Assembly: GCA_041671745.1 (NCBI GenBank)
Contig: JBAZBC010000018.1
Span: 31,905-95,904 of the forward strand
DNA from: Opitutaceae bacterium
Lineage (GTDB): Bacteria > Verrucomicrobiota > Verrucomicrobiia > Opitutales > Opitutaceae
Direction: 5' to 3'
Length of the DNA: 64,000 nt
Shown: positions 11,366-55,029 of the stretch, piece by piece
How positions within the stretch are numbered: position 1 is the stretch's first letter
Layout of the letters: each line of letters begins with the position of its first letter
Notes under the pieces: generated by a model
Told to the model about the DNA's origin: nothing
The model's input: the letters and a program-made list of their open reading frames with translations, nothing else
Database searches by the model: none
Position numbers and translations under genes: made by a program

Positions 11366-11386
11366 GCAGGATGGTCCCGGAGTCGT

Positions 11387-12497: not shown

Positions 12498-12591
12498 GCG
12501 ATCCGTTGTGAGGCGGCAAGCCTCTGTGTCTGATCCCCTCAACCCCACAGCCCCGTTCACCGACCGGTAAGTCCCCTATCGTTTCTCGCTC

Positions 12592-14893: not shown

Positions 14894-14953
14894 TTCCTTA
14901 ACCCCCGGGCGACCCGGCGGCGTCACACGAAATTCCCCATACCCTATACTACC

Positions 14954-15811: not shown

Positions 15812-15823
15812 TTCTTTGATAGG

Positions 15824-15847
15824 CAGCTCGCGGCCGCTCGCGAGCTG
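15824..15847. other. GC-rich hairpin between PEP-CTERM 2 and the prepilin-like gene
   Basis: CAGCTCGCG-gccgct-CGCGAGCTG, 9-bp perfect stem; no U-tract, so not called a terminator. Confidence 0.35.
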
Positions 15848-15908
15848 TGTCTCCCAAAGCCGTGCGTGCAGCACGGCGCTCCCACCCCTCTTGTCCGTGT
15901 TTACCCCA

Positions 15909-16571: not shown

Positions 16572-16582
16572 CCGATTATCCC

Positions 16583-23680: not shown

Positions 23681-23703
23681 TGCGATATTTTATTTCAAAC
23701 CCC

Positions 23704-26442: not shown

Positions 26443-26463
26443 TCCTCCTTTTTTTCCAACGTC

Positions 26464-28527
26464 ATGAAAACTTCCCGTGTCTCCCGCTCCCTCGCCCTTG
26501 CGAGCCTGCTGTTGTCTCTCGCCGTTCCTGCGGCTTGGGGCGAAGTCAGTCTGCCGCCGCTTTTCTCCTCTCACGCGGTGTTGCAAAAAGCGCCCCGCGT
26601 TCCCGTCTGGGGCAAGGCCTCCGCCGGGGAACGCATTACCGTGACCCTCGGCACCGCCTCGGCTTCCGCCACTGCGGGGGCTGATGGCAAATGGAGCGCC
26701 TCGCTCGATCTCGCGCAGTCCGGTCCGGGTCCTTTTGACCTTGTGGTCAAGGGCACCAACACGCTCACCGTGAGCGATGTCGTCGTGGGCGAAGTCTGGC
26801 TGGCCTCGGGCCAGTCCAACATGGAGTGGGTCGCTTACAACACGACGGGAGCCAAGGAGGAGATGGCGCAATCCGCCAACCCGCAGGTGCGCCAGTTTCT
26901 CGTGAGGAAAAACACTTCGCCCACGCCTCTCGATGACATGCAGGGCGAGTGGAAGGTCGCCGGCCCGTCCACCACGGGCGGGTTCACCGCCACCGGTTAT
27001 TTTTTCGCCAAGTCGGTCCAGCAGGCGCTGGGACGGCCCGTGGGGTTGCTGAACTCCAGTTGGGGCGGAACGAACGTCGAGGGCTGGACCAGTGCCGACG
27101 GCGTAGCGCGCCTGCCCGCGCTCAAGGAAAGCACCGCCAAATATGGAGCCGAGGAGCAGTCCTTCCCGGTGCGGATCAAGGAATTCGCCACCGTTTTCTC
27201 CGACTGGACGGCGAAGACGGGGCGCGAAGATAAAAAGGCGCTCTCCAGCACGGACGTTCTGGGTGCCGCTTCCACCGTCGCGTGGCAGCCGGTCACATTG
27301 CCGGCGACCGCTGGCGCCGGGCTTCCCGCGAACGGCGGCGTGGTCTGGCTTCGGCGCACCGTGAACGTCCCGGCGGGCAGCGCGGGGCTCCAGCAATCGC
27401 TCGATGTCGGTCGCATCGACGGATTCTTCACCATCTATTTCAACGGGGAAAAGGTCAGCGAGGTCACGCCGGCGACCGGTCTGCCGCGTCCGGGGGCCTT
27501 TTACGTCAAGGGCGACCTCATCAAGGCGGGCGATAACACGCTTGCGCTGCGGATCTACCATCCCGCCGCGATGCCCGCCGTGGTCGACGGCCAGCCGTTC
27601 CGCTTTATCTATCGTCCGATTTCCGGCGAGTGGCAGGCGCACGTGGAGCAGGAGTTCCCTGCGCTTGCCGCCGATGCGCGGTCCACGCTGCCTCCGACGC
27701 CGGTGCGTCCCATGAACCGCCAGGACATCGGTGGCTATCTCTACAACGGCATGATCCATCCGATGATCCCCTACGGCATCCGCGGCGTCATCTGGTATCA
27801 AGGCGAGAGTAACGGCTGGCGCGCCGCGCAGTATCGCGAGTTTTTTCCGAACCTGATCACCGACTGGCGCGCCCGCTGGGGCATGAGCGATCTGCCCTTC
27901 TATTTTTGCCAGCTGGCGAACTTCGGCGGGAAGAGCTCCGAGTTTAAGGAGAACTCCACCGCCGAGCTGCGCGAAGCCCAGTCGCTCGCGCTGAAGCTGC
28001 CCAACACCGGCCAGGCGGTCCTCATCGACGTCGGCGAGGCCGACGACATCCATCCGCGCAACAAGCGCGACGTGGGCGCGCGGCTCGCGCGTATCGCTTT
28101 GGCGAATACCTATGGCCGCAAAGACATCACTTTTTCGGGCCCCGTCTATCAGGCGCAGCGCATCGAGGGTGAGCGCATCCGCATCGCCTTTACCCAGGCA
28201 AACGGCGGGCTGGTGGCAAAGGAGCTTCCCGCCACCTACGCGCCGCGCTCGACGGTGGATCGCACGCTGCCCCTGGAGAAATACAGCGCCGGCAGCGACC
28301 TGCAGGGTTTCGCCATCTGCGGCGCGGACCGCAAGTGGGTCTGGGCGCAGGCGAAGATCGACGGCGACAAGGTCGTCGTCTGGTCCTCCGCCGTGAAATC
28401 GCCCATCGCGGTGCGCTACGGCTGGGCGTCCAACCCGACGTGCAACCTCTACAACGGCGCCGGCCTGCCGGCCTCGCCCTTCCGCACCGACGATTTTCCT
28501 CTGAGCACGCTCGCCAACAAATACTGA
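26464..28527 (+). CDS. Sialate O-acetylesterase (SASA) family carbohydrate esterase with inserted sugar-binding domain
   Basis: 'GEVWLASGQSNM', 'GVIWYQGESN', 'DIHPRNKRDVG', 'AVRYGW','LYNGAGLPASPFRTD'; signal peptide. Confidence 0.9.
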   Translation: MKTSRVSRSLALASLLLSLAVPAAWGEVSLPPLFSSHAVLQKAPRVPVWGKASAGERITVTLGTASASATAGADGKWSASLDLAQSGPGPFDLVVKGTNTLTVSDVVVGEVWLASGQSNMEWVAYNTTGAKEEMAQSANPQVRQFLVRKNTSPTPLDDMQGEWKVAGPSTTGGFTATGYFFAKSVQQALGRPVGLLNSSWGGTNVEGWTSADGVARLPALKESTAKYGAEEQSFPVRIKEFATVFSDWTAKTGREDKKALSSTDVLGAASTVAWQPVTLPATAGAGLPANGGVVWLRRTVNVPAGSAGLQQSLDVGRIDGFFTIYFNGEKVSEVTPATGLPRPGAFYVKGDLIKAGDNTLALRIYHPAAMPAVVDGQPFRFIYRPISGEWQAHVEQEFPALAADARSTLPPTPVRPMNRQDIGGYLYNGMIHPMIPYGIRGVIWYQGESNGWRAAQYREFFPNLITDWRARWGMSDLPFYFCQLANFGGKSSEFKENSTAELREAQSLALKLPNTGQAVLIDVGEADDIHPRNKRDVGARLARIALANTYGRKDITFSGPVYQAQRIEGERIRIAFTQANGGLVAKELPATYAPRSTVDRTLPLEKYSAGSDLQGFAICGADRKWVWAQAKIDGDKVVVWSSAVKSPIAVRYGWASNPTCNLYNGAGLPASPFRTDDFPLSTLANKY

Positions 28528-29638: not shown

Positions 29639-30502
29639 TCAGAAATTTTTGAGCCGGTAGGCGCGCGGACTCAGGCCGAAGTGTTTTTTGAAGAGCCGGG
29701 AAAAATGAAAGGGATCTTCGTAGCCCGCCTGAAGGGCGACAGCGGCGATGTTGAGCGTGCGGTCGGCGAGCAGGCGCGTGGCGTGGTGCATGTGGTGCTG
29801 GGTCAGGCATTGCACCGGCGAGACGCCGAACACCGCTTTGAAGCGGGCGCAAAAATGCGGGACGGACATGCCCGCGAGCGCCGCCATCTCGCTCAAGCTG
29901 ATGTGGCGGGCCGGCGCGGTGCCGATGAGCCGGCGGACCGCGAGCAGATTTTCCGGAATGCGCACGTTCATCGCGGAAGGCGCGACGCTGCGCACCAGAT
30001 CACGCAGCGCGTTTTCCAGCAGGTTGCCCACGATCACGACATCGGGTCGCGCGTAGGCGACGATTTCGCCGTGCATGTCGAGCAGGCCCTGTTGGAACAG
30101 CGCGGTGCGGATGCCGAAGGGCTGGAGGAGCGGAACGCGGGCTTCCTCCAGAATGCGGGCGACGCGACGACCGGTGCAATGAACCCAGCTATGGCAGAAG
30201 GGAGCGTTGGGATTGCCGTAATATTGGGAAGATCCGGGCGTCCAGACCATCATGGTTTCCGCTGGTGAAAGGGCCTCGTCCCGCGCAGTCGCGGAGATGA
30301 CCGCCGGGTCGTGAAACAACATGATGAGGTAGTCATCGGTGCCGCGCGTCCGGTTGATCATGCATGGGGGCATGGCCTCGCGCACGCCGATACCGCGCAC
30401 ATTCAGTTCGGGCGAGTCGAGCAGTTGTGGCGTGAAGAACTGACGAAAGCCGGGCACCGGGGCGCGGGAGGGGGATTTGGGAGACATGACGGGTAGGGGC
30501 AT
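29639..30502 (-). CDS. AraC family transcriptional regulator
   Basis: Cupin-like N-domain 'HSWVHCTG'; C-terminal double HTH 'AGMSVPHFCARFK...AGYEDPFHFSRLFKKHFGLSPRAYR'. Start uncertain (30502 or 30487; the longest ORF starts at 30535). Confidence 0.88.
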   Translation of the reverse strand: MPLPVMSPKSPSRAPVPGFRQFFTPQLLDSPELNVRGIGVREAMPPCMINRTRGTDDYLIMLFHDPAVISATARDEALSPAETMMVWTPGSSQYYGNPNAPFCHSWVHCTGRRVARILEEARVPLLQPFGIRTALFQQGLLDMHGEIVAYARPDVVIVGNLLENALRDLVRSVAPSAMNVRIPENLLAVRRLIGTAPARHISLSEMAALAGMSVPHFCARFKAVFGVSPVQCLTQHHMHHATRLLADRTLNIAAVALQAGYEDPFHFSRLFKKHFGLSPRAYRLKNF

Positions 30503-30511
30503 AATTTTATC

Positions 30512-30537
30512 CATGTTTATTAGATGACCGGCCATGT
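30512..30537. promoter_or_regulatory. CATGT direct repeat at 21-bp period (candidate AraC-type site) in the AraC/GH116 divergent region
   Basis: CATGT at 30512 and 30533; TATGTT (-10-like) at 30559-30564 downstream. Confidence 0.4.
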
Positions 30538-30624
30538 TATTTTAAGGCTGTTTTCGAGTATGTTTTGGGGAGTCCATCGGATGCGGGACGACCCCGTTCC
30601 CGCACGTATGGCAGACGAAACGCC

Positions 30625-33222
30625 ATGAACCCCGCAGAGCCCCTTTTCCCCTTCCGTTACCGTGACGATTTGCAAGTCGCGCTGCCCATCGGTGGCATCG
30701 GCGCCGGGTGCCTGTGCCTGAATGGCTCGGGCGGCCTGCAGGATTTTTCCCTGCGCAACCGTCCCTCGACGACCGCAGTGCCGGATCATTTGCCCTACGG
30801 TTGCCAGAACGCCGCCTTTGCCTTGCTCCACATCAAGGGGGACAAGCCTGTCACCCGGCTGATCGAAGGCCCCATCCCGCCGGAGAAAATCTACGACCAG
30901 GGTTTGCAGACCCAGGGCTTTCGTCACGGCGGACACGAGGGGTTGCCGCGTTTTTCCAAATCATCGTTTTCGGCCGGTTATCCTTTTGGGCGCGTGCAGC
31001 TGTCCGACCCCAAGGTGCCGGTCACGGCGGAAGTCACCGGGTTCAATCCGTTCATTCCCCTCGACGCCAAAAATTCAGGCATTCCCTGCGCCGTGCTGGA
31101 ATACACCCTTAAAAACACGTCGCGTCGCGAGGTGTCGCTGGAGTTCTCGTTCCACTGGTCGCACCCGGCGGTCAATATTGGCGATGGCGAGCAAGCGGCC
31201 CGCAATGCGGGCGAGCGCGAGTCGCGCACGGCCGTGGTCGACGGACGCGGAGTCAAATTTTTCAACACGTCGGTGCCCACGGCCGAGCAGTTCGGCACTG
31301 CGTGTCTGCTCGCGCCGAAGGGCAAGCCGTTGGTCAAGGCGATGTGGTTTCGCGGAGGCTGGTTCGACTCGATTTCGCAGCTCTGGCGCGAAGTATCGAC
31401 CGGCTCCTTCACGCCCAACGACGGCTGGGACGGCATCGACACCGACGAGCGCAACGGTGGCTCGATCCTGCTGCGCGCCCGGTTGAAACCCGGCCAGAGC
31501 ATCACGCATCCGGTCATTCTCAGCTGGCATTTTCCCAACGGCTACCAGGCGCAGGCGCACGGCGAGATGGGCTGGGCCAACGGTCGCGACCGCACCGACG
31601 GGCCGTGGTGGCGTCCCTACTACGCGGGCGTATGGGCGGACGCGGTCGAGGTGGCGCAATATGTGGCGGACAACTACCGGAGCCTGCGCGAGCGCACCGT
31701 CGCCTTCAACCGCGCGCTGTTTTCCTCGACGCTCCCGATGCCGGTGCTCGATGCAGTGTCGGCGAATCTGGCGATCATCAAGTCGCCCACGGTTCTTCGG
31801 CTGGAGGGCGGACAGTTGTGGGGTTGGGAGGGCTGTTATCCGGGCTGGGGCTGTTGCCCCGGCAGCTGCACGCATGTGTGGAACTACGCGCAGTCCATTC
31901 CGCATTTGTTTCCCGAACTGGAGCGCACGCTGCGTTCGCTGGAATGGGAACGCTCGATGGACGCTTCGGGCAAGGTCGCGTTCCGCGCGGCGCTGCCGAT
32001 CGGGCCGGCGCGGTTTAAGCACTGCGCGGCGGCCGATGGACAACTGGGGGGCATGCTGAAGCTTTACCGCGACTGGCACATCTCCGGCGACACGCCGTGG
32101 ATGGCCGGCCTGTATCCGCTCGCGCGGCTCAGTCTCGAATATGCCATCGAGACCTGGGACCCCGAGCGCACGGGATTGCTGGTCGAGCCGCATCACAACA
32201 CCTACGACATCGAGTTCTGGGGCCCGGACGGCATGTGCACGAGCATCTACATCGCCGCGTTGAGCGCGATGGCGCGTCTGGCCGCCGCACTCGGGCGAAG
32301 CAAAGACGAGCAGGCCTACGCCGCGCTCGCCGAACGCGGCGCGAAGGCCATGGCGGCGGAGTTGTTCAACGGCGAGTATCTCCAGCAGCGGGTGCGTTAC
32401 GCCGATCTGCGCGACAAATCTTTCCTGCAAGAGCTCGAGGCCCGCCTCGCCAAGGGCGGCCAGCGCGCGGCGCTCCTCAAGAACGAGGGACCGAAATACC
32501 AATATGGTTCGGGCTGTCTTTCCGACGGCGTGATCGGCGCCTGGATGGCGCGGATCTACGGCGTGGAGGCGCCCTTCGACCAGTCCCAGATCCGCTCAAC
32601 ATTGAGCGCCATTCACCGGCATAATTTCCGGAGCGATCTCGCGGAGCACGCCAACTGCCAGCGGCCGGGCTACGCCCTGGGCCATGAAGCCGGGTTGTTG
32701 TTGTGCTCCTGGCCGCGCGGCGAAAAACCCACGCTGCCCTTCGTCTATTCCGACGAGGTGTGGACCGGCATCGAATACCAGGTGGCGACGCATCTGATCG
32801 CCGAAGGCATGGTCAAGGAGGGCCTGGCGTTGGTGAAGGCGGTGCGGTCGCGCTACGACGGCCGCGTGCGCAATCCGTTCAACGAATACGAATGCGGCGG
32901 CTACTACGCGCGGGCGATGGCGAGCTACGCGTTGCTCGGCACGCTGTCCGGCTTCCGCTACTCGGCGGTCGAGCGCACGCTCTGGTTCGGCCCGAAGCTG
33001 CGCACGCTCCCGTTCCAGGTGTTTTTCTCCGCCGCCGAAGGGTGGGGCACCGTGCGCCTGGAAAAAGACCGGCTCGTGGTCTCGCTCGTCGAGGGCCGCC
33101 TGCCGTTGAAACGCATCCTCGTGGAAACCGCCGGGACCGTTCGCGAGCTCGTGGTGGACAAGGTCGTCAAGGCCGGTTCGCCGGTTTCCTTCCGCCTCGG
33201 CGCAACCCGGCGGCCTCGCTGA
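30625..33222 (+). CDS. GH116 family glycosidase (DUF608/GBA2-like)
   Basis: 'ALPIGGIGAG', 'GWEG...GSCTHVWNYAQ', 'AADGQLG', 'HNTYDIEFWG', 'EVWTGIEY', 'NPFNEYECG.YYARAMASY'. Start set at ATG 30625. Confidence 0.88.
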   Translation: MNPAEPLFPFRYRDDLQVALPIGGIGAGCLCLNGSGGLQDFSLRNRPSTTAVPDHLPYGCQNAAFALLHIKGDKPVTRLIEGPIPPEKIYDQGLQTQGFRHGGHEGLPRFSKSSFSAGYPFGRVQLSDPKVPVTAEVTGFNPFIPLDAKNSGIPCAVLEYTLKNTSRREVSLEFSFHWSHPAVNIGDGEQAARNAGERESRTAVVDGRGVKFFNTSVPTAEQFGTACLLAPKGKPLVKAMWFRGGWFDSISQLWREVSTGSFTPNDGWDGIDTDERNGGSILLRARLKPGQSITHPVILSWHFPNGYQAQAHGEMGWANGRDRTDGPWWRPYYAGVWADAVEVAQYVADNYRSLRERTVAFNRALFSSTLPMPVLDAVSANLAIIKSPTVLRLEGGQLWGWEGCYPGWGCCPGSCTHVWNYAQSIPHLFPELERTLRSLEWERSMDASGKVAFRAALPIGPARFKHCAAADGQLGGMLKLYRDWHISGDTPWMAGLYPLARLSLEYAIETWDPERTGLLVEPHHNTYDIEFWGPDGMCTSIYIAALSAMARLAAALGRSKDEQAYAALAERGAKAMAAELFNGEYLQQRVRYADLRDKSFLQELEARLAKGGQRAALLKNEGPKYQYGSGCLSDGVIGAWMARIYGVEAPFDQSQIRSTLSAIHRHNFRSDLAEHANCQRPGYALGHEAGLLLCSWPRGEKPTLPFVYSDEVWTGIEYQVATHLIAEGMVKEGLALVKAVRSRYDGRVRNPFNEYECGGYYARAMASYALLGTLSGFRYSAVERTLWFGPKLRTLPFQVFFSAAEGWGTVRLEKDRLVVSLVEGRLPLKRILVETAGTVRELVVDKVVKAGSPVSFRLGATRRPR

Positions 33223-33239
33223 TCCAGTTCATCTCCCCC

Positions 33240-34952
33240 ATGTATACCCTTGGCATTGATTACGGCACCAACTCCGTCCGCGCCCTTGTCGTCCGCTGCT
33301 CGGACGGTGCGGAGCTCGGCACCGGCATCGTCAACTATCCCGGCGGCCATCAGGGCGTGCTGCTGGATTCGCGCGATCACTCGCTCGCGCGGCAGAATCC
33401 GGCGGACTACCTGTTCGGCCTCGAAAAATCGGTGAAGCTGGCGCTCGCCGGGGCGCGCAAAACGAAGGGCTTCGACGTGCGTCGCGTGGCTGGCATCGGC
33501 GTCGATACGACCGGTTCGAGTCCGCTTCCGGTCGATGCGGGCAACGTCCCGCTCGCCTTCCAAAAAAAATGGGCGGACAACCTCGCCGCGCAGTGCTGGC
33601 TGTGGAAGGACCACACCAGCGCCGCCGAGGCCGCCGAGATCACCGCGCTCGCCGCCCGCCTGCGTCCGCACTATCTCGCCAAGTGCGGCGGCGCGTATTC
33701 GTCCGAGTGGTTCTGGTCGAAAACCCTGCATTGCCGCCGCACCGCGCCGAAGGTGTTTTCCGCCGCTTACTCGTGGGTGGAACTGGCCGACTGGATACCT
33801 TCCGTGCTGGCGGGTGTCACCGATCCGCGCGCGGTCGTCCGCGGTGTTTGCTGCGCCGGACACAAGGCGCTCTACGCGGATGACTGGGGCGGTCTGCCCG
33901 ACGCCAAGTTTCTTGCGAAGCTGGACCCCGGCTTGGCCGCGCTGCGCGACCGCCTCTACAAAAAAGCGCACGATGCCACGACGGCCGCCGGGGCGCTCTG
34001 CGAGAAGTGGGCCGATAAACTCGGTCTGCCCGCCGGCATCCCCATCGCCATCGGCGAGATGGACGTCCACTACGGAGCCATCGGCTCCGGCGTCGCCGAA
34101 GGCACGCTGGTCAAGGTCATCGGAACCTCCAGCTGCGACTGCGGTGTGGTCCCGATCAAGCGACGCGTGGCCGACATCCCCGGAATCTGCGGCATCGTGA
34201 AAGGCGCGATTCTTCCCGGCTTCCACGGTCTGGAAGCGGGGCAGTCCGCCGTCGGCGATATTTTCAAATGGTTCGTCGAGGGCGTGCTCGGAGATGTGTC
34301 GCTGCACGCCGGGCTCACCGCCGAGGCCGCGAAGCTCAAGCCCGGTCAATCGGGTCTGCTGGCGTTGGATTGGAACAACGGCAATCGCACGGTGCTGGCC
34401 GATCCGCTCCTCTCCGGCCTGCTTCTCGGGCAGACGCTCTACAGCACGCGTGCGGAAATTTATCGCGCGCTGATCGAAGCCACGGCGTTCGGGGCGCGCG
34501 CGATCATCGAGCGTTTTCGGGAATACGGCGTGCGCGTCGATCGCGTCGTCTGCGCCGGCGGCATCGCCGAAAAAAATCCGCTGCTCATGCAGATCTATGC
34601 GGACGTCACCGGTTGCACGATGCGTGTCGCCGGTTCGGCGCAGGCCTGCGCGCTTGGCGCCGCGTTGTCCGCGGCCGTCCTGGCCGGGGAGCATCCGGAC
34701 TTTGCGACCGCGCAGCGGAAGATGACGCGGTTGAAACCAATCGCCTTCAAACCCCGCCCCGCCGAGGCGCGCGTCTACGAACAGCTCTACGCGCTGTATC
34801 GGAAACTCCATGACGCGTTTGGCGGAGTCGGCGGGGCCGTCGATCTCTCCGGGGTGATGAAAGAACTCATCGCCATCAAGTCCGCCGCGCACGGTCCGGC
34901 GAAGAAAACGAGCCGGGCCAAATCCACCGCCCGCGCCCGCCGCAAATCCTGA
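33240..34952 (+). CDS. araB: Ribulokinase (FGGY family)
   Basis: 'YTLGIDYGTNSVRA', 'IGVDTTGSSP', 'LWKDHT', 'YSSEWFWSK', 'AGHKA', 'LDWNNGNRT', 'IEATAFG'. True start is ATG 33240; the ORF-track start 32703 overlaps GH116. Confidence 0.88.
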   Translation: MYTLGIDYGTNSVRALVVRCSDGAELGTGIVNYPGGHQGVLLDSRDHSLARQNPADYLFGLEKSVKLALAGARKTKGFDVRRVAGIGVDTTGSSPLPVDAGNVPLAFQKKWADNLAAQCWLWKDHTSAAEAAEITALAARLRPHYLAKCGGAYSSEWFWSKTLHCRRTAPKVFSAAYSWVELADWIPSVLAGVTDPRAVVRGVCCAGHKALYADDWGGLPDAKFLAKLDPGLAALRDRLYKKAHDATTAAGALCEKWADKLGLPAGIPIAIGEMDVHYGAIGSGVAEGTLVKVIGTSSCDCGVVPIKRRVADIPGICGIVKGAILPGFHGLEAGQSAVGDIFKWFVEGVLGDVSLHAGLTAEAAKLKPGQSGLLALDWNNGNRTVLADPLLSGLLLGQTLYSTRAEIYRALIEATAFGARAIIERFREYGVRVDRVVCAGGIAEKNPLLMQIYADVTGCTMRVAGSAQACALGAALSAAVLAGEHPDFATAQRKMTRLKPIAFKPRPAEARVYEQLYALYRKLHDAFGGVGGAVDLSGVMKELIAIKSAAHGPAKKTSRAKSTARARRKS

Positions 34953-34976
34953 ATTTTCCCGTCCATTTTTCCCATC

Positions 34977-36053
34977 ATGAGCAACTCATTCTATACCGCA
35001 TCGCTGGGGGGACTCTCCCAGCTTACACGCGCCCGCACGCGCTCGATCAGTCCGGAGAATCCCACCGGTGAAAAAGGGCGCGGCGGCATGGCCACCGACG
35101 GCACCGGCGCGAAGGCCGCCCGCGATCTCGGGATCGGCTGGAAACTTTCACCCGCCTGGGACATCGCCCCGAAAACCATCTACGAGCTCGCGCGAATCGA
35201 CGGCCCGGGCGTGATCCAGCAAATCTGGATGACACCCACCGGCATCTGGCGGAACCTGATTCTGCGCATCTACTGGGACGGACAGGAGCACCCCTCGGTC
35301 GAGTGCCCGGTGGGCGATTTTTTTGCGAACGGCTGGGGCAGTTATGCGCGGGTCGATTCGCAGGCGGTGTGCGTGAACCCGGGCAGCGCCTTCAATTGCT
35401 ACTGGCCGATGCCTTTCCGCAAAGGCTGCCGCATCACCTACGAAAATATCGGCGACGATCCCTGCCGCCTGTATTTTCAAATCAACTACGCCGAGCAGGA
35501 GATCCCGGAGGACGCGGCTTATTTCCACGCGCAGTTCCGCCGGGTGAATCCGCTGCCTTACAAGGAAGTCTACACCATCCTCGACGGCGTCGAGGGCTGG
35601 GGACACTACGCGGGCACCTACATGGCCTGGGGCGTGAACAACGCGGGTTGGTGGGGCGAGGGCGAAATCAAGTTCTACCTCGATGGTGACGAGTATCCCA
35701 CGATCTGCGGAACGGGGACCGAGGATTATTTCTGCGGCTCCTACAACTTCGAGAACCGTATCACCAAGCAATACGACACGTTCAATTCGGCCTACGCCGG
35801 ACTGCCGCAGATTATCCGTCCGGATGGCACCTACGCGTCGCAGACGCGTTTCGGGATGTATCGCTGGCACCTGATGGATCCGGTCCGCTTCGAGAAGGAC
35901 CTGAAGGTCACGATCCAGGCGCTCGGCTGGCGCCACGGCGGGCGTTATCTCCCGCTGCAGGACGACATCGCATCGGTCGCCTACTGGTATCAGCAGAAGC
36001 CGTCGAAGCCGTTCCCGCCTCTGCCGGAACGCGACTACTTGGAAATCGTCTGA
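34977..36053 (+). CDS. DUF2961 / GH172 family glycosidase (paralog 1)
   Basis: 'RSISPENPTGEKGRGG', 'LRIYWDG', 'PVGDFF', 'YWPMPF', 'WWGEGEIKFYLDGD','GTGTEDYF'. Confidence 0.9.
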   Translation: MSNSFYTASLGGLSQLTRARTRSISPENPTGEKGRGGMATDGTGAKAARDLGIGWKLSPAWDIAPKTIYELARIDGPGVIQQIWMTPTGIWRNLILRIYWDGQEHPSVECPVGDFFANGWGSYARVDSQAVCVNPGSAFNCYWPMPFRKGCRITYENIGDDPCRLYFQINYAEQEIPEDAAYFHAQFRRVNPLPYKEVYTILDGVEGWGHYAGTYMAWGVNNAGWWGEGEIKFYLDGDEYPTICGTGTEDYFCGSYNFENRITKQYDTFNSAYAGLPQIIRPDGTYASQTRFGMYRWHLMDPVRFEKDLKVTIQALGWRHGGRYLPLQDDIASVAYWYQQKPSKPFPPLPERDYLEIV

Positions 36054-36068
36054 GCAGACGAAAGGCCG

Positions 36069-36103
36069 GCCGCCCCGTCTGCGATCAACGCGGACGGGGC
36101 GGC
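36069..36103. terminator. Long GC hairpin between convergent GH172 and hypothetical genes
   Basis: GCCGCCCCGTCTGCG-atcaa-CGCGGACGGGGCGGC: 15-bp stem with one G.U pair, between converging stop codons at 36053 and 36110. Confidence 0.6.
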
Positions 36104-36109
36104 GCGCAA

Positions 36110-37402
36110 TCAATGGCGGGGCGGGTTGCCCAGCAGCCAGGCGTATTCGGCGAAGAAACCGAAGGAGCCGCGCAGCGATGTCCACGGCACGCGGGCGATG
36201 AACGGAGAGAGTTTTCCGGAAATCTTCAGGTCCGCATCGGCGCCGGGCGCGAGCAGCGCGATGGCGGCGGCGCAGAGCGGTTCGCGAATGGTCGAATTCT
36301 CCAGGTTGCGCCCGTGGTTTTTCCAATCGCCGAGTTCCGACAGGGCGAGGGCCACGGCGTCGTCGACGGTCGCCTGGGCGTGCCAGTGCGCATTGAGCGC
36401 GCGCCAGTCGGTGTCCATCGGCGCGAGCGAGACGTCGGCCGTCGGGGCCGCGACGATCCGGGGGGCGACGGTCACGGCGTTGAGACGCAGGGCCGCGAGG
36501 TATTTTTCGCGGATGGCCGGGCGCGATTCCAGGTCAACCAAGGCGCGCAGCATCGCCTGCGGGTTCACGCTGATCCAGAGCTGCCGGTCCATGCCGTGAC
36601 TTTGCGCGAAGAGGCCGGGCAGGCCTGCCTCGACATAATCGAGCATCGTCTTGCCGGTGCGCGTCGGGGCGGTGAGCGCGTTTTCATAGGCGTGCAGCCA
36701 GGATGAATCCCGCGTGATCTCGTAGATGATCCGGGTGATGAAAAGTTGACGGCAGGCGCTGCGGAAATCGGGAGCCGCCAGGGTGCCGCGAATCTGGCCG
36801 GGCGGAAGTCCGCCGGAGGAATCGCAAGGCAGATACCATTTCAGCCCGCGCAAGGTCGTGGCCAGCGCGACCATTTTTGCCTCGATCTTTGTTTTCTCCT
36901 CCGGGGTCGCGGCGCCCGAGCGGACGTAGGCCCAGAGACCTTGGAACCACGGGGCGGTCTGGTCGTCGGAGCCGATGGCGTAGTGGCTCTTGCCGTCGGC
37001 CGACACGTTGCGGGCGACGAAACCCGGCACGTCGGAGACTGAAGCGGCGAGCAGGAGACCGCGGGCCAGTTTGCCTGCGTTCGCGCGGTCGGCGGCGGCA
37101 CCGGTGAGCTGCCAGCGACGCACCGCGGCATCGAGGTAGATGCCGGTGAAGAAGGTGCCGTTTTCGACCGGCGTCCACCAGGCGAGCGCGTTGGGTTTGC
37201 CCTCAAGGCACTCCGACGCGGTGGGCAGTTCGATATTCCCGGACGGCGTGGTGTAGTCGAGCAGGAGTCCGTTCGGCTGCACGAAGCGGGTCCACAGATC
37301 TTTGTGAATGGTCTCGATCAGCGCGGGCAGGGCGGCTGCCGAAGCCGCCGATGGCAAGGCAAGAGACAGAAGAGCCACCAAGGTCACGAGGGGTAAACGC
37401 AT
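36110..37402 (-). CDS. Secreted hypothetical protein, probably helical (six-hairpin-glycosidase-like)
   Basis: Clear signal peptide MRLPLVTLVALLSLALPSAASA; Trp/Asp/Glu-rich segments 'WWTPVENG', 'GFVARNV', 'SDDQ'; no family recognised. Confidence 0.6.
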   Translation of the reverse strand: MRLPLVTLVALLSLALPSAASAAALPALIETIHKDLWTRFVQPNGLLLDYTTPSGNIELPTASECLEGKPNALAWWTPVENGTFFTGIYLDAAVRRWQLTGAAADRANAGKLARGLLLAASVSDVPGFVARNVSADGKSHYAIGSDDQTAPWFQGLWAYVRSGAATPEEKTKIEAKMVALATTLRGLKWYLPCDSSGGLPPGQIRGTLAAPDFRSACRQLFITRIIYEITRDSSWLHAYENALTAPTRTGKTMLDYVEAGLPGLFAQSHGMDRQLWISVNPQAMLRALVDLESRPAIREKYLAALRLNAVTVAPRIVAAPTADVSLAPMDTDWRALNAHWHAQATVDDAVALALSELGDWKNHGRNLENSTIREPLCAAAIALLAPGADADLKISGKLSPFIARVPWTSLRGSFGFFAEYAWLLGNPPRH

Positions 37403-37503
37403 GGCGATTTTCTCTAAGTGAGAACGATTGCCGGCACGAGCCGCCTTGAGCGGATTTCAACGGTCTCGATGATTTATCCCGGGGTGAATTGAAGGGGCTC
37501 TGA

Positions 37504-38742
37504 TCAAGCGTTGGCGGATGTCAGGGAGGCAGGCCCGAGCTTAAGATTCATGATTCTTTCCTCCACCGGTCGCAATGCGGGCAAGCCGTTCTCCGGCGCA
37601 TCGAGGTAAAAGTAGGCCGCACCGCTCCAGTCGTCGCAGCGATAAAAATTGCACCAACGTTCGGCCAGGGCCGGGTCACCGAGATCGGGTTCGCCGTCTT
37701 CCTTCAAGCGCCACAGCCAGGATTTTCCCGGGCCGAGCGGGTTCTGTCCATCCCACGAAAGACTGATCGGATCCAACGGCACGCCGGCCGTTCGCTTTTG
37801 ATGAACCCAGGCGGCCTGGCATCCTCCGATGGTGTCCAACACGGCGCGAAAATCCGTGTGAAAATACACCGGGTCGACCGTGTGGAATCTATACATGCCG
37901 AACTGGCGTGCGCCTCCATCGGCCAGCGTGCAACCCTGCGTGGGGTGTGAGAAAAGACCCTGGCAATAGCCCGTCCCGATATAATCCTCCTCGCCCGTGC
38001 CGCAGAGCGTTGGATGACGTTCGTCTCCATCGAGCCACGCCTTGAATTCGCCTTCGCCCCACCAGGAACCATCGTAGATCGGATCTAGATTCACGCCGAA
38101 ATGGGTGCCGAGAAAGCGGCCGCGCCCTGACACGCGCGGAAGCAGGGTGAACGGTTCGCCCAACACGTTCGGGGATTCACGTCTCCAGTGGGTGTGAAAA
38201 TACAGGGCTTCGGCGGGATGCTCCACGCCCATGAGCAGATTCACATCGTAGAAAAAATGTTTGAGGCAATGGGGCCCCTCGTTGGTGACGGTGATGCGAG
38301 CGGAACGTCGGAATGGCATCGGCACGAAGCAATTGAAAGAGCGTCCCTCGGGGGAAGAGAAGAATTGATTGGCGAAGGGCAACGCACGCGCGAGCGAGGC
38401 ACCAAAGAAATCGCCGATCGGAGCGGATACGGCGGGAGTGGTCGCACCGTCCCAGAACATGTCGATCCGCAGCGCGCGCAACATGGAGGCCGGTTTCCCC
38501 TCGAAGGTCAGATCAAACAGGGTCGCCCAGATGCGGGTGATCAGCCCACTGCCTTCAACATCCAGGAGGGTCTTGCTTTCGCCGGGGTGGATGCAGCACC
38601 AGGCCGACCCCTTGGCACCCCGGTTGGTAGTCGCGGCGGTTCCCTTGCCGGCGGAGGGATTTTCGAAGCTGGCCCACCGGGTCTGCCAGGAGCGAGGGGC
38701 ACTGTGATAGAGGGGGAGGGTCAGGGGATCGGGCGGTGTCAT
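37504..38742 (-). CDS. DUF2961 / GH172 family glycosidase (paralog 2)
   Basis: 'WASFENP', 'LRIDMFWDG', 'PIGDFFG', 'FVPMPF', 'WWGEGEFKAWLDGD', 'GTGEEDYIG', 'YRFH..DP'. Confidence 0.9.
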   Translation of the reverse strand: MTPPDPLTLPLYHSAPRSWQTRWASFENPSAGKGTAATTNRGAKGSAWCCIHPGESKTLLDVEGSGLITRIWATLFDLTFEGKPASMLRALRIDMFWDGATTPAVSAPIGDFFGASLARALPFANQFFSSPEGRSFNCFVPMPFRRSARITVTNEGPHCLKHFFYDVNLLMGVEHPAEALYFHTHWRRESPNVLGEPFTLLPRVSGRGRFLGTHFGVNLDPIYDGSWWGEGEFKAWLDGDERHPTLCGTGEEDYIGTGYCQGLFSHPTQGCTLADGGARQFGMYRFHTVDPVYFHTDFRAVLDTIGGCQAAWVHQKRTAGVPLDPISLSWDGQNPLGPGKSWLWRLKEDGEPDLGDPALAERWCNFYRCDDWSGAAYFYLDAPENGLPALRPVEERIMNLKLGPASLTSANA

Positions 38743-38782
38743 CAGGGGAGCCTACACGTTAACCGGATTTGCGGAAAGCGTC

Positions 38783-38808
38783 CATGTAGCAAGTTCCCGA
38801 AAACATGT
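38783..38808. promoter_or_regulatory. Second CATGT direct repeat at 21-bp period in the GH172/MFS divergent region
   Basis: CATGT at 38783 and 38804, same spacing as at 30512/30533. Confidence 0.4.
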
Positions 38809-38954
38809 CGGATCTTATGAAGTTTCCGGATTCTGGCGCGGGGAAGCGAAATTGAACGGATTCGATACCGTCGCATTTGCGCACACCATGCCGGAAGATG
38901 AATTCGTAGGGTTGGTTGGCGCGGGTGAATATTCACGCCGTTGCGGCCAACCCG

Positions 38955-40469
38955 ATGACCACCCAGGCCCATATCAACGAACGCGACCGCATCCCATTTC
39001 TCCAGAAGCTGATGTTCAGCCTCGGCATCAATATGGACTATGTGGCCACGGGCTTGATCACGGGCGTTCTTTGGATGCCTTTTTTCAACATCGGGCTGGG
39101 CATGTCGCCGACCGTGTTGGGAATCATCCTGATGGTCCTGCGATTTTGGGATGCGATGACGAATCCGGTCATCGGCAACCTTTCGGACAACGCGCGCACA
39201 CGCTGGGGGCGCCGCCGGCCCTTCATGTTCGTCGGGGCGATCACGACCGCCGCGATTTATCCGCTGTTCTGGTATATTCCCGCCGGCCTTGGCGACACCG
39301 GGCGCATCGTTTACCTGACCGTGATCGGACTGGTTTTCTTCACCAGCTTCACCGTGTGGTCGATGCCCTACTACTCGTTGCAGATGGAGCTGACGCCCGA
39401 CTACGACGAGCGCACGCGGCTCACGGCCTGGATGACGTTTTTCGGGAAAGGCTCCTTCCTGGTCGGAAGCTGGATACTGGCGTTTGTCATTTTGCTCGGC
39501 GGGGTGGCGCTGAACCAGCCGGCGGTTTTTGAGGGGCACGACGGATTTGCTGGGTCGTTGCTCCGGTGGTTGCAGCCGCTGCTGGCGGTCTTCGGGTCCA
39601 ACGCTGCGGATGAAAAGCCGGTTGTGGTCGGCATGCGGATCTGCAGCTGGTTCATCGCGCTGGGTATATTGGTGTTCGGCTTGCTGCCTGCGATTTTTGT
39701 GAAGGAGCGGCCCCTGCCGGCGGTAATCGGGAAAAAGGATCGCGAGCCGTTTTGGCAGAGCGTGCGAGACTCGGCGCGATCGATGCCGCTCTGGTCGCTG
39801 ATCAGCATCTCGTTCTTTCTGGTGCTGGGATCGACGGCGGTGGGAAGCCTCGGCCAGTATTTGAATATCTACTACGTCTTCCACGGCGATCTTGGCGCCG
39901 CGGCCTACGTCGCCGGCTGGAAAGGCTCGGTCCTCGTGACGGCGGGAATCATCTCGATCCCCTTTTTCACCTGGCTGGGGGAAAAGTGGGACAAGCGCAC
40001 CGTGGTGCTCGTGATGCTTGGGGTGAGCATGGCGGGCCATTTTTTGAACCTGTTCATGATGACGCCGGAGCATCCCTACTGGCAGCTGATTCCGGGAGTG
40101 ACGGAGTCGTGCGGCATCGCGGCGATCTGGCTGTTCCTGCCCTCGATGAAGGCGGATGTGGCCGACGCCGACGAACTCAAGACCGGGCGCCGGCGCGAAG
40201 GCTCGATCAACTCGTTTTTTTCCTGGTTTCTCAAACTGGCGTTCACCGCCTCGATGGGAATCGGCGGCGTGCTGCTCGAGCTGTCGGGCTTTGATGCGAA
40301 AATCAACGACCAGCCGCCCGAGGTGCTCCATCGCATGATGTGGCTCTACATCGCGCTGCCGACCGTCATCTGGGGTATCGCGATGGTGTCGTGCTGGTAT
40401 TTCCCGCTCGGACGCAAAAAGTGCGCCGAGATCCGCGCGGAGCTGGAAGCCCGCCGAGGACAACGCTGA
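38955..40469 (+). CDS. MFS transporter, glycoside-pentoside-hexuronide (MelB/GPH) family
   Basis: About 12 hydrophobic segments; 'WDAMTNPVIGNLSD.ARTRWGRRRPF', 'ELTPDYDERT', 'ADVADADE..TGRRREG'. Start set at ATG 38955. Confidence 0.9.
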   Translation: MTTQAHINERDRIPFLQKLMFSLGINMDYVATGLITGVLWMPFFNIGLGMSPTVLGIILMVLRFWDAMTNPVIGNLSDNARTRWGRRRPFMFVGAITTAAIYPLFWYIPAGLGDTGRIVYLTVIGLVFFTSFTVWSMPYYSLQMELTPDYDERTRLTAWMTFFGKGSFLVGSWILAFVILLGGVALNQPAVFEGHDGFAGSLLRWLQPLLAVFGSNAADEKPVVVGMRICSWFIALGILVFGLLPAIFVKERPLPAVIGKKDREPFWQSVRDSARSMPLWSLISISFFLVLGSTAVGSLGQYLNIYYVFHGDLGAAAYVAGWKGSVLVTAGIISIPFFTWLGEKWDKRTVVLVMLGVSMAGHFLNLFMMTPEHPYWQLIPGVTESCGIAAIWLFLPSMKADVADADELKTGRRREGSINSFFSWFLKLAFTASMGIGGVLLELSGFDAKINDQPPEVLHRMMWLYIALPTVIWGIAMVSCWYFPLGRKKCAEIRAELEARRGQR

Positions 40470-40495
40470 ACCGGTTGCCACATCTTTTTTCACGC

Positions 40496-42556
40496 ATGAG
40501 TTCCATCGCATCCCTTCCTCTTGCCGGGCTTGAAGCCGGCACCCTTTCACTTGGCGGCGCACCCGTGCTGCACGGCTTGCCGGCCGACTGGACGCTGAAC
40601 GCGGTGCCCGGCGGCGCGTTCCTCCGCGCCGCGCCGAAAGAGTGTCACTGTTTCCTGGAGTTGCCGGCCGGCCGCATCGCCGGGCTCTCGCGGTTCACGA
40701 GCTGCTACCGGTTCGTGCCGTTCTGGATGAAACCGGCGGGCGGCCGCACCGAGGCGGACGTCAAACCGGAGACGATGTGGATACTGGCGGAGACGGCGTC
40801 CGGTTACGCGTTGATTGTGCCGCTGCTCGACGGCGTCAACCGCTACAGCCTCACGGGCACGGCGACGGGGCTCTCGCTCGTGATCGAGACGGGCGACCCG
40901 ACGATCCCGTGCACGGCGGGCACGGCGCTCTTCGTTGCAACGGGTCAGGACCCTTACTCGCTGCTCACGGAGTCGGCGCGCATCGTGGGTGCTCATTTTG
41001 GCGGACGGCGTTTGCGCACGGAAAAGCCGGTTCCTGATTTCGTGGAGCTGTTCGGCTGGTGCACGTGGGACGCTTTCTACAAGGAAGTGACCGAGGAAAA
41101 AGTGCTGGCGGGCCTGGAGGTGTTTGCGGCAGGCGGAGTGCGTCCGCCGCTGCTGATCCTGGATGACGGCTGGCAAAGCTACGAACGCTTCCCGACGGGG
41201 GAGGACCGGTTGGTGAGTCTTAAGCCGAACGCACGTTTCAACGGCGACCTCACTCCGCTGGTTCGCGCGAGCAAGGAGCGTTACGGCGTGCGCAGCTTTT
41301 TTGTGTGGCACGCGTTCATGGGTTACTGGGGCGGGGTCGATCCGCAGGCGCTGCCCGCCTATGGCTCGCGCACGATGCCGCGCAGTTTCGGGCCGCATGT
41401 GCTGCGGCAGGAGTGGACCTGGAACGTCTGGCCTTGGGGTGCCCTGGTCTCGGTGCCGGCGGCGGACCGCATCGCGGCGTTTTACGACGACTACCATTCA
41501 GGACTGGTCGCGCAGGGCGTGGACGGCGTGAAGGTGGATGTGCAGGGCATGGTCGAGGCCGTCGCCTCCGGTCAGGGCGGGCGCGTGGCGCTGCATCGCG
41601 CGTATCGGGCGGCGTTGGACGGATCGGTTAACAGGCACTTCGCCGGACGTCTGATCAATTGCATGTCGAGCACCTCGGAGTGCGCCTATCTGGCAGACAC
41701 CGCGGTCTTGCGAAGCTCGGACGATTTTTATCCGCAAAAGCCCGGAAGCCACGGCATGCACCTGTTCGCCAACGCGCAGGTCGGCCTCTGGTTTGGCGAG
41801 TTCATGCTGCCCGACTGGGACATGTTTCAGACGACGCACGACTACGGGGCCTTCCACGCGGCTTCGCGGGCGATCTCCGGCGGGCCGGTTTATATTTCGG
41901 ACAAAGCCGAGGCTCATGATTTCGTGCTGCTGCGGAAACTGATGCTTTCCGACGGCACGATCCTGCGCGCCGACCATCAGGCGAAACCGACTCCGGATTG
42001 CCTTTTCTCCGATCCGACGGCCGAGGATGTGTTGTTGAAGATTTTCAACCGCAACGGGGATTGCGGCGTGGTGGGACTGTTCAATGTCCGTCCCCCATCC
42101 GGCGTAGTAAATGCACCCAAGGCGATCACCGGCGAAGTCTCGCCGGCGGATATCCCCGGCTTCGCCACGGATGACGCGGACTTTATCGGCTATGCGCACC
42201 AGGCGGACCGCTTGTGGCGGGCAGGGCGGGGCGGGCACGAAACCTTTGAGCTGATCGAAGGCGCGTGGGAGCTCGTGTCGTTCGCCCCGGTTGAAAACGA
42301 TTTCGCGGCGCTTGGTCTGGCGGACAAGTTCAACTCGACCGGCGCGGTGACTGCGCGCGAGTGGCACGGGCCAAAAGGGGTCGAGGTGACTTTGCGTGAC
42401 GGCGGACGATTCTTGGCCTGGTCGAAAGTGTGCCCGGCCTCGGTGCGGACTGCGGCGGGCGAAGCGCTGGCGTTCGATTACGACATGCATTCCGGCCGGC
42501 TCACGGTCGACCTTGCCGCCAAGGGACCGGTGACCGTTCTGGTTACCTTTGCCTGA
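40496..42556 (+). CDS. GH36 alpha-galactosidase, Sip1/raffinose-synthase type
   Basis: 'FGWCTWDAFY', 'ILDDGWQ', 'VWHAFMGYWGG', 'DGVKVD', 'SSDDFYP', 'PDWDMF', 'ISGGPVYISD'. Start set at ATG 40496. Confidence 0.9.
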   Translation: MSSIASLPLAGLEAGTLSLGGAPVLHGLPADWTLNAVPGGAFLRAAPKECHCFLELPAGRIAGLSRFTSCYRFVPFWMKPAGGRTEADVKPETMWILAETASGYALIVPLLDGVNRYSLTGTATGLSLVIETGDPTIPCTAGTALFVATGQDPYSLLTESARIVGAHFGGRRLRTEKPVPDFVELFGWCTWDAFYKEVTEEKVLAGLEVFAAGGVRPPLLILDDGWQSYERFPTGEDRLVSLKPNARFNGDLTPLVRASKERYGVRSFFVWHAFMGYWGGVDPQALPAYGSRTMPRSFGPHVLRQEWTWNVWPWGALVSVPAADRIAAFYDDYHSGLVAQGVDGVKVDVQGMVEAVASGQGGRVALHRAYRAALDGSVNRHFAGRLINCMSSTSECAYLADTAVLRSSDDFYPQKPGSHGMHLFANAQVGLWFGEFMLPDWDMFQTTHDYGAFHAASRAISGGPVYISDKAEAHDFVLLRKLMLSDGTILRADHQAKPTPDCLFSDPTAEDVLLKIFNRNGDCGVVGLFNVRPPSGVVNAPKAITGEVSPADIPGFATDDADFIGYAHQADRLWRAGRGGHETFELIEGAWELVSFAPVENDFAALGLADKFNSTGAVTAREWHGPKGVEVTLRDGGRFLAWSKVCPASVRTAAGEALAFDYDMHSGRLTVDLAAKGPVTVLVTFA

Positions 42557-42596
42557 AGCGCAATCAGTCCGCGCGTGACGTCCTTCCCAAGTGATC

Positions 42597-43808
42597 ATGA
42601 CCACACAAAAGGGGGACAGTTGGAATGAGTCGGAAGCCTATGCCGATCCGCTTTCGGGGCGCCGTATCCAACGGCTGACGTCGGCCGGTTTCTACAACAT
42701 GACGCCCAACTATCACACGGGAACGGCGTTCACGGCGGATGGGCGGTCGTTGATTCTGGCGAGCGGACGGCAGCAGGGCAGTGCCTTGTTCAAGGCGGAG
42801 GTCGAAACCGGCCGGTTGACGCAGTTGACCGGTTGGTTTCCCGACTACGGTTCGATTGATGAGATTCACAAGCATGGGCAGGGACGTTGCATTCTTGGCG
42901 GAAAGGGTGGCGGCGTCACCATGTTGTCCTGCGTGGCTCCTCATCGGAGGTTTGCGGTTTTTGTGCTTGGCCGCGCGGTGCGCCTGGTCGACATCGAAAC
43001 ACTGGCTGAACGCGTGTTGTGTCCGGATGTGGGGACGGAGTGGATCCCGGGCATGCCTAGCATCTCGCCCGATGAGGAGACGCTGTTGATTCCGCTCATG
43101 TCGTCGCATCCGGAGATCGCCGCCGGCCAGCCGATCACCCGGTCCTACATGGAGCATTTTGCGGAGGCCGGTCCGCAGTTCCGTCTGCTCGAAATCGAGG
43201 TGTCAACGGCGACGGCGCGCGTGGTGTATCAGGAGAAATGCGGGGGGTGCGCGCATTCACCCCACAGTCCGGCGGACGCCGGGAGGGTTTTGCTGGATCG
43301 TGATCGTTCGCCCGGATTGTGGGCCTATGGGCCGCCCGGGGTGAGCCGGGCGTGGACGCTCAACTTGCGAGACGGAGGATTGACCGCTTTGACGCCCCGC
43401 AATGCGCAGACGTTTCAGACCCACTCGGTGTGGACGCATGACGGCGAGGCGATTCTTTATCATGGTCCGGCGGCCGGGGGCGGGCAGTTCATCGGGGCGA
43501 TCAGTCCCGCCGGGCAGGTTCTCAAGGAATATGTTTTTCCCGAAGCCAAGGGCTACGGCCATGTGGCAGCTCTCGCCGGACGGAAGGGGATCATCCTAGA
43601 CGGCGACTTGGCGAAGGACCGCCTGCAGCTACTTGATTTCGAGACGGCGGGGCCTTGTGTGGAAACGCTGGCCCTGCATGGGAGCGACCTGGGTTGCATG
43701 CCCTGGCAATACGCGCATGTGCACCCCCAGTCGGATTGGCAAGGGCGGCGCGTATCATTCAATCGGGCCGTCGGCGGGCGCAGTGATGTGCTGGTGGTTG
43801 ATGTATAG
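42597..43808 (+). CDS. Oligogalacturonate lyase (PL22/Ogl)-like beta-propeller protein
   Basis: 'DPLSGRRIQRLT....YHTGTAFTADGRSL' N-terminus and 'HVHPQSD....VSFN' C-terminus resemble Ogl/TolB-type propellers; activity not established. Confidence 0.6.
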   Translation: MTTQKGDSWNESEAYADPLSGRRIQRLTSAGFYNMTPNYHTGTAFTADGRSLILASGRQQGSALFKAEVETGRLTQLTGWFPDYGSIDEIHKHGQGRCILGGKGGGVTMLSCVAPHRRFAVFVLGRAVRLVDIETLAERVLCPDVGTEWIPGMPSISPDEETLLIPLMSSHPEIAAGQPITRSYMEHFAEAGPQFRLLEIEVSTATARVVYQEKCGGCAHSPHSPADAGRVLLDRDRSPGLWAYGPPGVSRAWTLNLRDGGLTALTPRNAQTFQTHSVWTHDGEAILYHGPAAGGGQFIGAISPAGQVLKEYVFPEAKGYGHVAALAGRKGIILDGDLAKDRLQLLDFETAGPCVETLALHGSDLGCMPWQYAHVHPQSDWQGRRVSFNRAVGGRSDVLVVDV

Positions 43809-54869: not shown

Positions 54870-55029
54870 GGGGTATGGCGGATAAGGCGGGCGGCGAGGA
54901 TCAATCCGGACGAGAGAATGGCTGCGGCGGGATGGCACGCCAACAGGGGAATCATGGCGCGATTCTGCAGATAAGAGCGCAACGCGAGCGGTTATGAAAT
55001 CGTTCAATCGGTTCGCGTGGCGGGTTCAT

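Follow-up and report, generated by a model that had tools for sequence, protein, structure and literature searches.

In six-hairpin enzymes the active-site funnel lies on the face with the long loops leading into every second helix. The exported alpha-1,6-mannanases of glycoside hydrolase (GH) family 76 (PF03663), which adopt an (alpha/alpha)6 fold, use a catalytic Asp-Asp pair, and the enzymes of the AGE superfamily (PF07221), all-alpha toroids of ~400 aa such as N-acyl-D-glucosamine 2-epimerase, cellobiose 2-epimerase and the sulfoquinovose/mannose isomerase YihS, use a pair of His residues. Known D-arabinan systems contain GH183, GH172 and GH116 enzymes together (PMC10509167, PMC10115798). 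We analyzed a 64,000-nucleotide stretch of DNA from an Opitutaceae bacterium (assembly GCA_041671745.1, contig JBAZBC010000018.1, positions 31,905 to 95,904; hereafter the window), in which the gene for an exported 430-aa protein, P0001, lies between two GH172 genes. A first-pass annotation had proposed P0001 as a candidate endo-acting glycosidase that might supply a missing extracellular step. No named family fits P0001, which is therefore treated here as belonging to a new one; on balance we lean towards a carbohydrate-active enzyme of a six-hairpin-like type that is periplasmic or secreted and is probably an oligosaccharide-active glycosidase working upstream of an MFS_2 importer, and a part in a D-arabinan pathway is not supported.

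The Target Gene Encodes an Exported Protein

The target open reading frame (ORF) is certainly a real gene: it has homologues, it yields a confident AlphaFold2 (AF2) model, and comparison with a 95%-identical copy (Logan SRR13608732, assembled from a sequencing run) gave a ratio of nonsynonymous to synonymous polymorphism (pN/pS) of 0.19. The N-terminus of P0001 (MRLPLVTLVALLSLALPSAASA, with A following the cleavage point) is a classical Sec/signal peptidase I (SPase I) signal with an AxA cleavage motif and without a lipobox Cys. As this is a plain SPase I signal in a diderm verrucomicrobium, P0001 is predicted to reside most likely in the periplasm and is possibly secreted further out. The gene and its immediate surroundings comprise the following features of the window:

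36110 to 37402, minus strand: target gene for P0001, exported member of an unnamed six-hairpin-like family (430-aa ORF, homologues, AF2 model, Foldseek, pN/pS)
37334 to 37402, minus strand: signal peptide codons of P0001, residues 1-23 (translation read directly), with cleavage expected after ASA
37403 to 37503, minus strand: 101-nt gap between GH172b and the target, in which no terminator-like or promoter-like site was found
37504 to 38742, minus strand: GH172/DUF2961 paralog 2 (GH172b, P0002), without signal peptide, upstream of the target and co-oriented with it (Pfam match)
36062 to 36104, no strand assigned: GC-rich hairpin lying between the stop codons of the convergent GH172a and target genes (-35 kcal/mol, z -3.1)
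34977 to 36053, plus strand: GH172/DUF2961 paralog 1 (GH172a, P0004), without signal peptide, convergent with the target (Pfam match)
38916 to 40469, plus strand: MFS_2 (GPH-type) sugar symporter, 51-57% identical to relatives near the target's own relatives in loci L001, L002 and L100

Both flanking proteins are full-length DUF2961/GH172 proteins by Pfam scan (E values of 7e-64 and 4e-96). None of the GH116, ribulokinase, GH172a and GH172b proteins of the window has a signal-like N-terminus, so that P0001 is the sole exported protein of the 30-40 kb block; elsewhere in the island a SASA esterase, the 921-aa and 812-aa GH42-like proteins and a 1673-aa protein are exported. The first-pass annotation had described a 430-aa exported protein between two GH172 genes, co-oriented downstream of GH172 paralog 2 and alone in having a signal peptide between 30 and 40 kb, and this description holds in all its parts. 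Since the 101-nt gap lacks a recognizable terminator or promoter, co-transcription of GH172b and the target is plausible. The hairpin between the convergent stops, which none of 200 shuffled sequences matched in folding, is likely a bidirectional terminator common to GH172a and the target. A 606-aa Arg/His/Gln-rich ORF on the minus strand (38742-40562) was rejected as a gene, being the opposite-strand shadow of the MFS_2 gene.

P0001 Belongs to a Large Unnamed Family

P0001 has 34 close homologues, and its family extends to 544 representative clusters in a library of 1.8 billion proteins (50% identity, E up to 1e-3), distributed over Verrucomicrobiota, Planctomycetota, Lentisphaerota, Cytophagales, Paenibacillaceae and some Alphaproteobacteria. 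P0001 matched no family in Pfam or NCBIfam, ten distant members likewise had no match in either, and a sequence search of the PDB found no chain with the single P0001 sequence, a 35-member profile or a 93-member profile; the protein had been rightly called unassigned. When 93 members were scanned one by one against Pfam (E up to 1), solely isolated sub-threshold matches appeared, and the carbohydrate-related traces among them, one each to GH76 (0.014), GH127 (0.026) and a C5-epimerase (0.03), all concerned six-hairpin families. The homologues are named "hypothetical protein" in the databases, save one Devosia member, which UniRef has automatically labeled "Mannose or cellobiose epimerase, AGE family". 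A literature search by keyword returned no account of the family, though it may appear there under another name.

In a maximum-likelihood tree, P0001 and P0005 fall within a verrucomicrobial clade of 16 sequences (support 100/100), and their lineage has an unusually long stem branch of 0.65. The host genome itself encodes a long paralog on contig C7 (68755-70689), with 44% identity to P0001. Basal and sister members of the clade are "long forms" of ~580 aa, in which a C-terminal domain of ~125 aa follows a Pro/Thr-rich linker. This domain is modeled as a beta-sandwich (predicted local distance difference test, pLDDT, of 89), has no Pfam name, and is similar to accessory domains found in a GH2 beta-glucuronidase (6hpd, template modeling (TM) score of 0.70) and in GH138; it has been lost from the window copy, P0001. 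Its occurrences are:

L002, 11345-11728, and contig C7 of the host genome, 70309-70686; also in L001, L057, L101, L102 and L014: long-form C-terminal beta-sandwich domain
L011, 15318-15809: the same domain as a separate small ORF, in one case

Other members are fused to GH123, beta-helix, BNR/sortilin, GT2 or Golvesin_C modules, and one to an FGE-sulfatase-like module. By a simple hydrophobic-stretch test, 40 of 90 full-length members have a signal-like N-terminal segment, and a few of the 50 signal-less members look like mis-called starts.

Predicted Fold and Conserved Residues

The AF2 model of P0001 (pLDDT 92.9, predicted TM score 0.92) is all-helical, with ~14 long helices, in agreement with the helical look noted earlier. 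Among the top 50 matches of a Foldseek search against the PDB, almost all were (alpha/alpha)6/7 toroid sugar enzymes, with probabilities of up to 0.99 and otherwise weak scores; they included AGE-family proteins (2afa, YihS, cellobiose and glucose 2-epimerases), GH76, PL2, AprG and the lyase BACCELL_00875. The model thus suggests that the family probably lies within the six-hairpin fold class. As these toroid enzymes are its sole structural neighbors, the label "unclassified (alpha/alpha)-barrel enzyme family", which the first-pass annotation had used, is a fair one for P0001, weak though the matches are (TM at most 0.42).

The two motifs singled out earlier, WWTPVENG and SDDQ, proved to be the blocks with the highest conservation in the family:

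37157 to 37180, minus strand: codons of WWTPVENG, residues 75-82, with a near-invariant N71-side loop, W75 and E80 (family alignment)
36959 to 36970, minus strand: codons of SDDQ, residues 145-148, in which S145, D147 and Q148 are at least 97% conserved and D146 is variable

In the 93-member alignment, columns that are at least 90% conserved comprise P60, P70, N71, W75, E80, G82, G87, G115, L116, G127, F128, R131, D136, S145, D147, Q148, P151, W152, G260, L288, E292, W333 and E368. Most of them fall in the long loops before helices H3 (82-100), H5 (146-162) and H13 (346-360), on the face that holds the funnel in six-hairpin enzymes, and N71, W75, E80, R131, D136, S145, D147, Q148, W152 and W333 lie in or beside these loops, as judged along the sequence.

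The likeness to GH76, which includes the export signal, shows in the Foldseek matches 4mu9, 9r4o, 6y8f, 4c1s, 7nl5 and 4bok, and the D146-D147 pair of P0001 at the start of an inner helix is reminiscent of the GH76 catalytic pair. However, the TM scores are 0.29-0.42, PF03663 gave a single match below the cut-off (E 0.014) among the 93 members, and although D147 is 98% conserved, many members have N, Q or S in place of D146, and the family is thus not characterized by a two-Asp retaining pair. Membership in GH76 was rejected; hhalign against one GH76 sequence gave a probability of 6%.

The top Foldseek matches raise another explanation, namely that P0001 is a remote isomerase or epimerase of the AGE superfamily, similar to cellobiose 2-epimerase or YihS, which acts on an oligosaccharide without hydrolyzing it. 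The size and all-alpha toroid architecture agree (2afa, E 7.4e-3; 2zbl, TM 0.42; probability 0.99), the automatic name of the Devosia member points the same way, and there are cytoplasmic, transporter-linked members. GH130 genes occur in two loci of the close clade, and GH130 partners cellobiose 2-epimerase in mannan catabolism. In contrast, no relation is visible at the level of sequence profiles, since PF07221 fails to match any of the 93 members with the E threshold raised to 1, and a comparison of the family profile with seven AGE sequences by hhalign gave a probability of 11%. No His column is conserved at 85% or above in the 93-member alignment, the one fairly conserved His being H33 of the N-terminal helix, in the close set only, and hence the family has no AGE-type His pair. 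In addition, export, seen in about half of the members, and a place in SusC/SusD loci, seen in several, are unusual among isomerases. Altogether, we regard an AGE-type isomerase as unlikely.

A polysaccharide lyase or an unsaturated-uronyl hydrolase (PL2- or PL27-like, or with GH88/GH105-like chemistry) acting on uronate-containing and often sulfated glycans would also be compatible with parts of the structural match list, which contains PL2 (2v8j, TM 0.42) and BACCELL_00875 (5nok, 5no8), all of them weak matches. The invariant R131 together with conserved Asn, Gln and Tyr residues is in keeping with lyase sites, sulfatase genes lie near seven of the family's loci, one member carries the FGE-sulfatase-like fusion, and the long-form C-terminal domain is like that of GH2 beta-glucuronidase. 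Yet there is no detectable sequence relation: the Pfam models for lyases, GH88 and GH105 match no family member (the GH88/GH105 profile PF07470 none of the 93), and GH88/GH105 structures are missing from the Foldseek top 50. Genes for uronate catabolism were not found in the 28-44 kb block of the window, and residue 253, a candidate anion-binding position (codon at 36644-36646), is occupied by Arg in 88% of members, but P0001, P0005 and P0006 have Met there. We therefore consider a uronate-directed activity of P0001 improbable.

Genomic Partners and a Probable Action on Oligosaccharides

The genomic context of the family is largely carbohydrate-related. In the clade closest to P0001, the gene sits in tight operons with a DUF1559/prepilin-like gene directly upstream, a GH42/GH5-like gene (~770 aa) adjacent and GDSL esterases downstream, and GH130, GH113, GH51-like, GH29, GH65, LacI and MFS_2 genes lie near these loci; the paralog on contig C7 of the host genome has the same types of operon partners. 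GH42-like genes occur near five loci, and 11 of 70 loci contain tandem pairs of paralogs. A "Golvesin_C-containing" neighbor that had been taken for a conserved partner was rejected as such, since it is a tandem paralog of the P0001 family, and a 777-aa neighbor in L011 was rejected as a GH42-like relative.

In Larkinella, Spirosoma and Dyadobacter, the operon runs from an extracytoplasmic function (ECF) sigma factor gene through FecR, SusC and SusD to paralog A and paralog B, and the tandem paralogs are the only enzyme candidates in these SusC/SusD operons. Larkinella terrae (L077, 1804-20902; also L072, L076 and L031) has two consecutive ECF-sigma/FecR/SusC/SusD units, of which the first ends in two tandem family members and the second in a flavin adenine dinucleotide-dependent oxidoreductase (PF12831) and a 416-aa protein without a Pfam family.

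Two leaderless members were checked for linkage to transporters. The Paenibacillus member adjoins genes for an ATP-binding cassette (ABC) sugar-binding protein and an AraC regulator, and the Devosia member adjoins a complete CUT1-type sugar ABC transporter and a LacI gene. Because about half of the members are predicted to be cytoplasmic and those checked lie beside sugar-uptake genes, the family more likely acts on oligosaccharides than on polymers, as an endo-polysaccharidase would; the extracellular endo role suggested by the first-pass annotation is thus not supported.

Linkage to GH172 Was Not Found Beyond the Lineage of P0001

Known D-arabinan systems offer one further explanation, in which P0001 takes the place of GH183 (DUF4185) as the missing extracellular endo-D-arabinanase, or another endo-enzyme, and feeds the cytoplasmic GH172, GH116 and ribulokinase. 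The resemblance to GH183 is one of proposed role only, that of an exported enzyme encoded beside GH172 and GH116, an arrangement described for the known systems (PMC10509167, PMC10115798). P0001 is the only exported protein of its block, it is probably co-transcribed with GH172b, and the gene arrangement is retained in the 95%-identical copy. The Pfam scan found no DUF4185 (PF13810) match among the window proteins, P0001 included, as the first-pass annotation had stated; a genome-wide search for PF13810 was also empty but uninformative, since the control genomes were silent too. The long stem branch and the replacement of R253 by Met are compatible with a shift in specificity.

We scanned one genome per species for loci with relatives of P0001, with WWTPVENG serving as a search pattern, and took the best 80 of the 360 loci found with flanks of up to 10 kb. 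Searches by tblastn with the GH172a, GH172b, GH116, ribulokinase (FGGY) and GH36-like proteins of the window gave matches within 10 kb in none of these 80 loci, and synteny (GH172b, MFS_2 and the GH36-like gene) was kept solely in the 95%-identical copy. The P0001 family was found in none of 23 other genomes of the host genus and in none of 60 other genera of the host's taxonomic family, whereas GH172 is present in four same-genus genomes, all without the P0001 family. One congener shows what a simpler arrangement looks like:

L103 (G006:C45), 10084-12146, compared with window 29639-36053: divergent AraC-GH172a pair (AraC 48% and GH172a 83% identity)

No GH116, ribulokinase, target, GH172b or MFS_2 gene lies within 10 kb of the pair in L103. 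In the window, GH116 and the ribulokinase gene stand between AraC and GH172a, and the target, GH172b and MFS_2 come after. As the congener has the AraC-GH172a pair alone, the window cluster appears to have been assembled stepwise. Taken with the lack of linkage in the 80 loci and with the congeners that have GH172 and no family member, this means that the arrangement in the window, with the target between two GH172 genes, is a lineage-specific mosaic.

The functional tie to GH172/GH116 and D-arabinan had been made to depend beforehand on an association of homologues with GH172 loci, and with none of 80 loci linked and no family member in 23 congeners it is not borne out; we found no evidence that P0001 is a component of a D-arabinan pathway. 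The clade of P0001 is tied instead to GH42-like, GDSL and GH130 genes, the cytoplasmic and transporter-linked half of the family fits oligosaccharides over polymers, and D-arabinan as the substrate of the GH172 proteins of this locus is itself only presumed. Altogether, an endo-D-arabinanase or similar endo-enzyme is very unlikely.

The Surrounding Glycan Island

The GH116-ribulokinase-GH172 block proves to be a mosaic that was inserted in a larger conserved glycan island of verrucomicrobia, made up of GH42-like, DUF1559 pseudopilin, PEP-CTERM, esterase and MFS_2 genes. Most of the gene types that partner the target's relatives (GH42-like, DUF1559, PEP-CTERM, LacI and MFS_2) are also present elsewhere in the same 64-kb island, where the following relatives of partner genes can be placed:

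11.4-12.5 kb: LacI
13.8-15.8 kb: PEP-CTERM proteins
15.8-17.2 kb: pseudopilins
20.1-21.7, 24.4-26.4 and 52.6-54.7 kb: GH42-like segments
52569 to 55007, minus strand: 812-aa GH42/GH5-like exported protein, with relatives at 35-39% identity

Relatives of the 812-aa protein share operons, as neighbors, with the closest relatives of the target and with the host genome's own paralog. Three paralogous GH42/GH5-like clan-A regions occur in the window, at 52569-55007 (minus strand), at 23677-26442 (plus strand) and at 20141-21691 within 18659-23680 (plus strand). The 812-aa protein matches solved GH42 beta-galactosidases at E ~5e-5 over ~160 residues only and has no NCBIfam name, and it may represent another uncharacterized hydrolase family.

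A set of genes comprising LacI, PEP-CTERM proteins, DUF1559/prepilin-like (H-X9-DG) pseudopilins, an exported ~770-aa GH42/GH5-like protein, GDSL/SASA esterases and MFS_2 recurs near close relatives of the target in several Verrucomicrobiota and is scattered over the window as well, at these places:

window, 11387-17215, 18659-28527 and 52569-55007
L001-L005, L057, L083, L100 and L101
contig C7 of the host genome, 63133-74145

The recurrent set looks like a conserved verrucomicrobial glycan-utilization module. Downstream of the GH36-like gene, a 405-aa protein without a Pfam or NCBIfam family (42591-43808, plus strand) is kept in the syntenic copy L085.

Discussion

The export signal, the predicted toroid fold, the pattern of conserved polar and aromatic residues and the carbohydrate-related partners together incline us to the reading that P0001 is a periplasmic or secreted carbohydrate-active enzyme, probably an oligosaccharide-active glycosidase. 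P0001, exported by the Sec pathway, would work in the periplasm, where as a putative glycoside hydrolase it would cleave or trim soluble oligosaccharides, and the products would then be imported by the adjacent GPH/MFS_2 symporter.

Several observations weigh against this reading. Even the fold class follows from a match list that is consistent yet low-scoring (best E 7.4e-3, TM 0.29-0.42, root-mean-square deviation above 10 A). E80 and D147 are candidate catalytic carboxylates by topology only, and with Met in place of Arg at position 253 the window copy may differ from the family norm. Across the 70 loci, the immediate co-oriented neighbors differ greatly in kind and housekeeping genes are among them, as in the P0006 locus, and no member has a known activity. 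The last two points would also suit a protein with no role in glycan breakdown, either a non-catalytic binding or scaffold protein or an alpha-toroid enzyme with a non-carbohydrate substrate: the neighbors include LGT, cation efflux, PdxA, efflux pump and GreA genes, and alpha-toroids are found as well in terpene cyclases, LanC and thioester domains, one of which (6tav) is among the Foldseek matches. However, the near-invariant Glu, Asp, Arg, Asn and Gln residues and several Trp residues are typical of sugar-binding catalytic sites, and members of the family are encoded in SusC/SusD loci or next to sugar ABC transporters, or are fused to glycoside hydrolase domains. We thus give little credence to a role away from glycans and retain an oligosaccharide-active glycosidase as the preferred reading.

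It is tempting to go further and to propose, as a possibility that we would put somewhat short of even chances, that the family constitutes a new GH (or lyase) family whose six-hairpin fold is divergent, which has its own catalytic apparatus formed by E80 and D147, and which acts on a glycan linkage outside the current CAZy families. Its users would be bacteria of the Planctomycetes-Verrucomicrobia-Chlamydiae group, Cytophagales and Paenibacillaceae. If this is true, the SusC/SusD loci of Cytophagales, with two tandem members as their sole enzymes, would represent a new minimal glycan-utilization system.

For the window, the analysis means that its proposed D-arabinan pathway loses a tempting but unsupported piece. 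For the family, it brings to light several hundred clusters without a name in the copies of Pfam, NCBIfam and PDB searched, situated inside the glycan loci of abundant polysaccharide degraders of soil and freshwater. Should its members prove to be enzymes, they would add one more family to CAZy and explain SusC/SusD loci that have seemed "enzyme-less", which makes the P0001 family a worthwhile lead for enzyme discovery.

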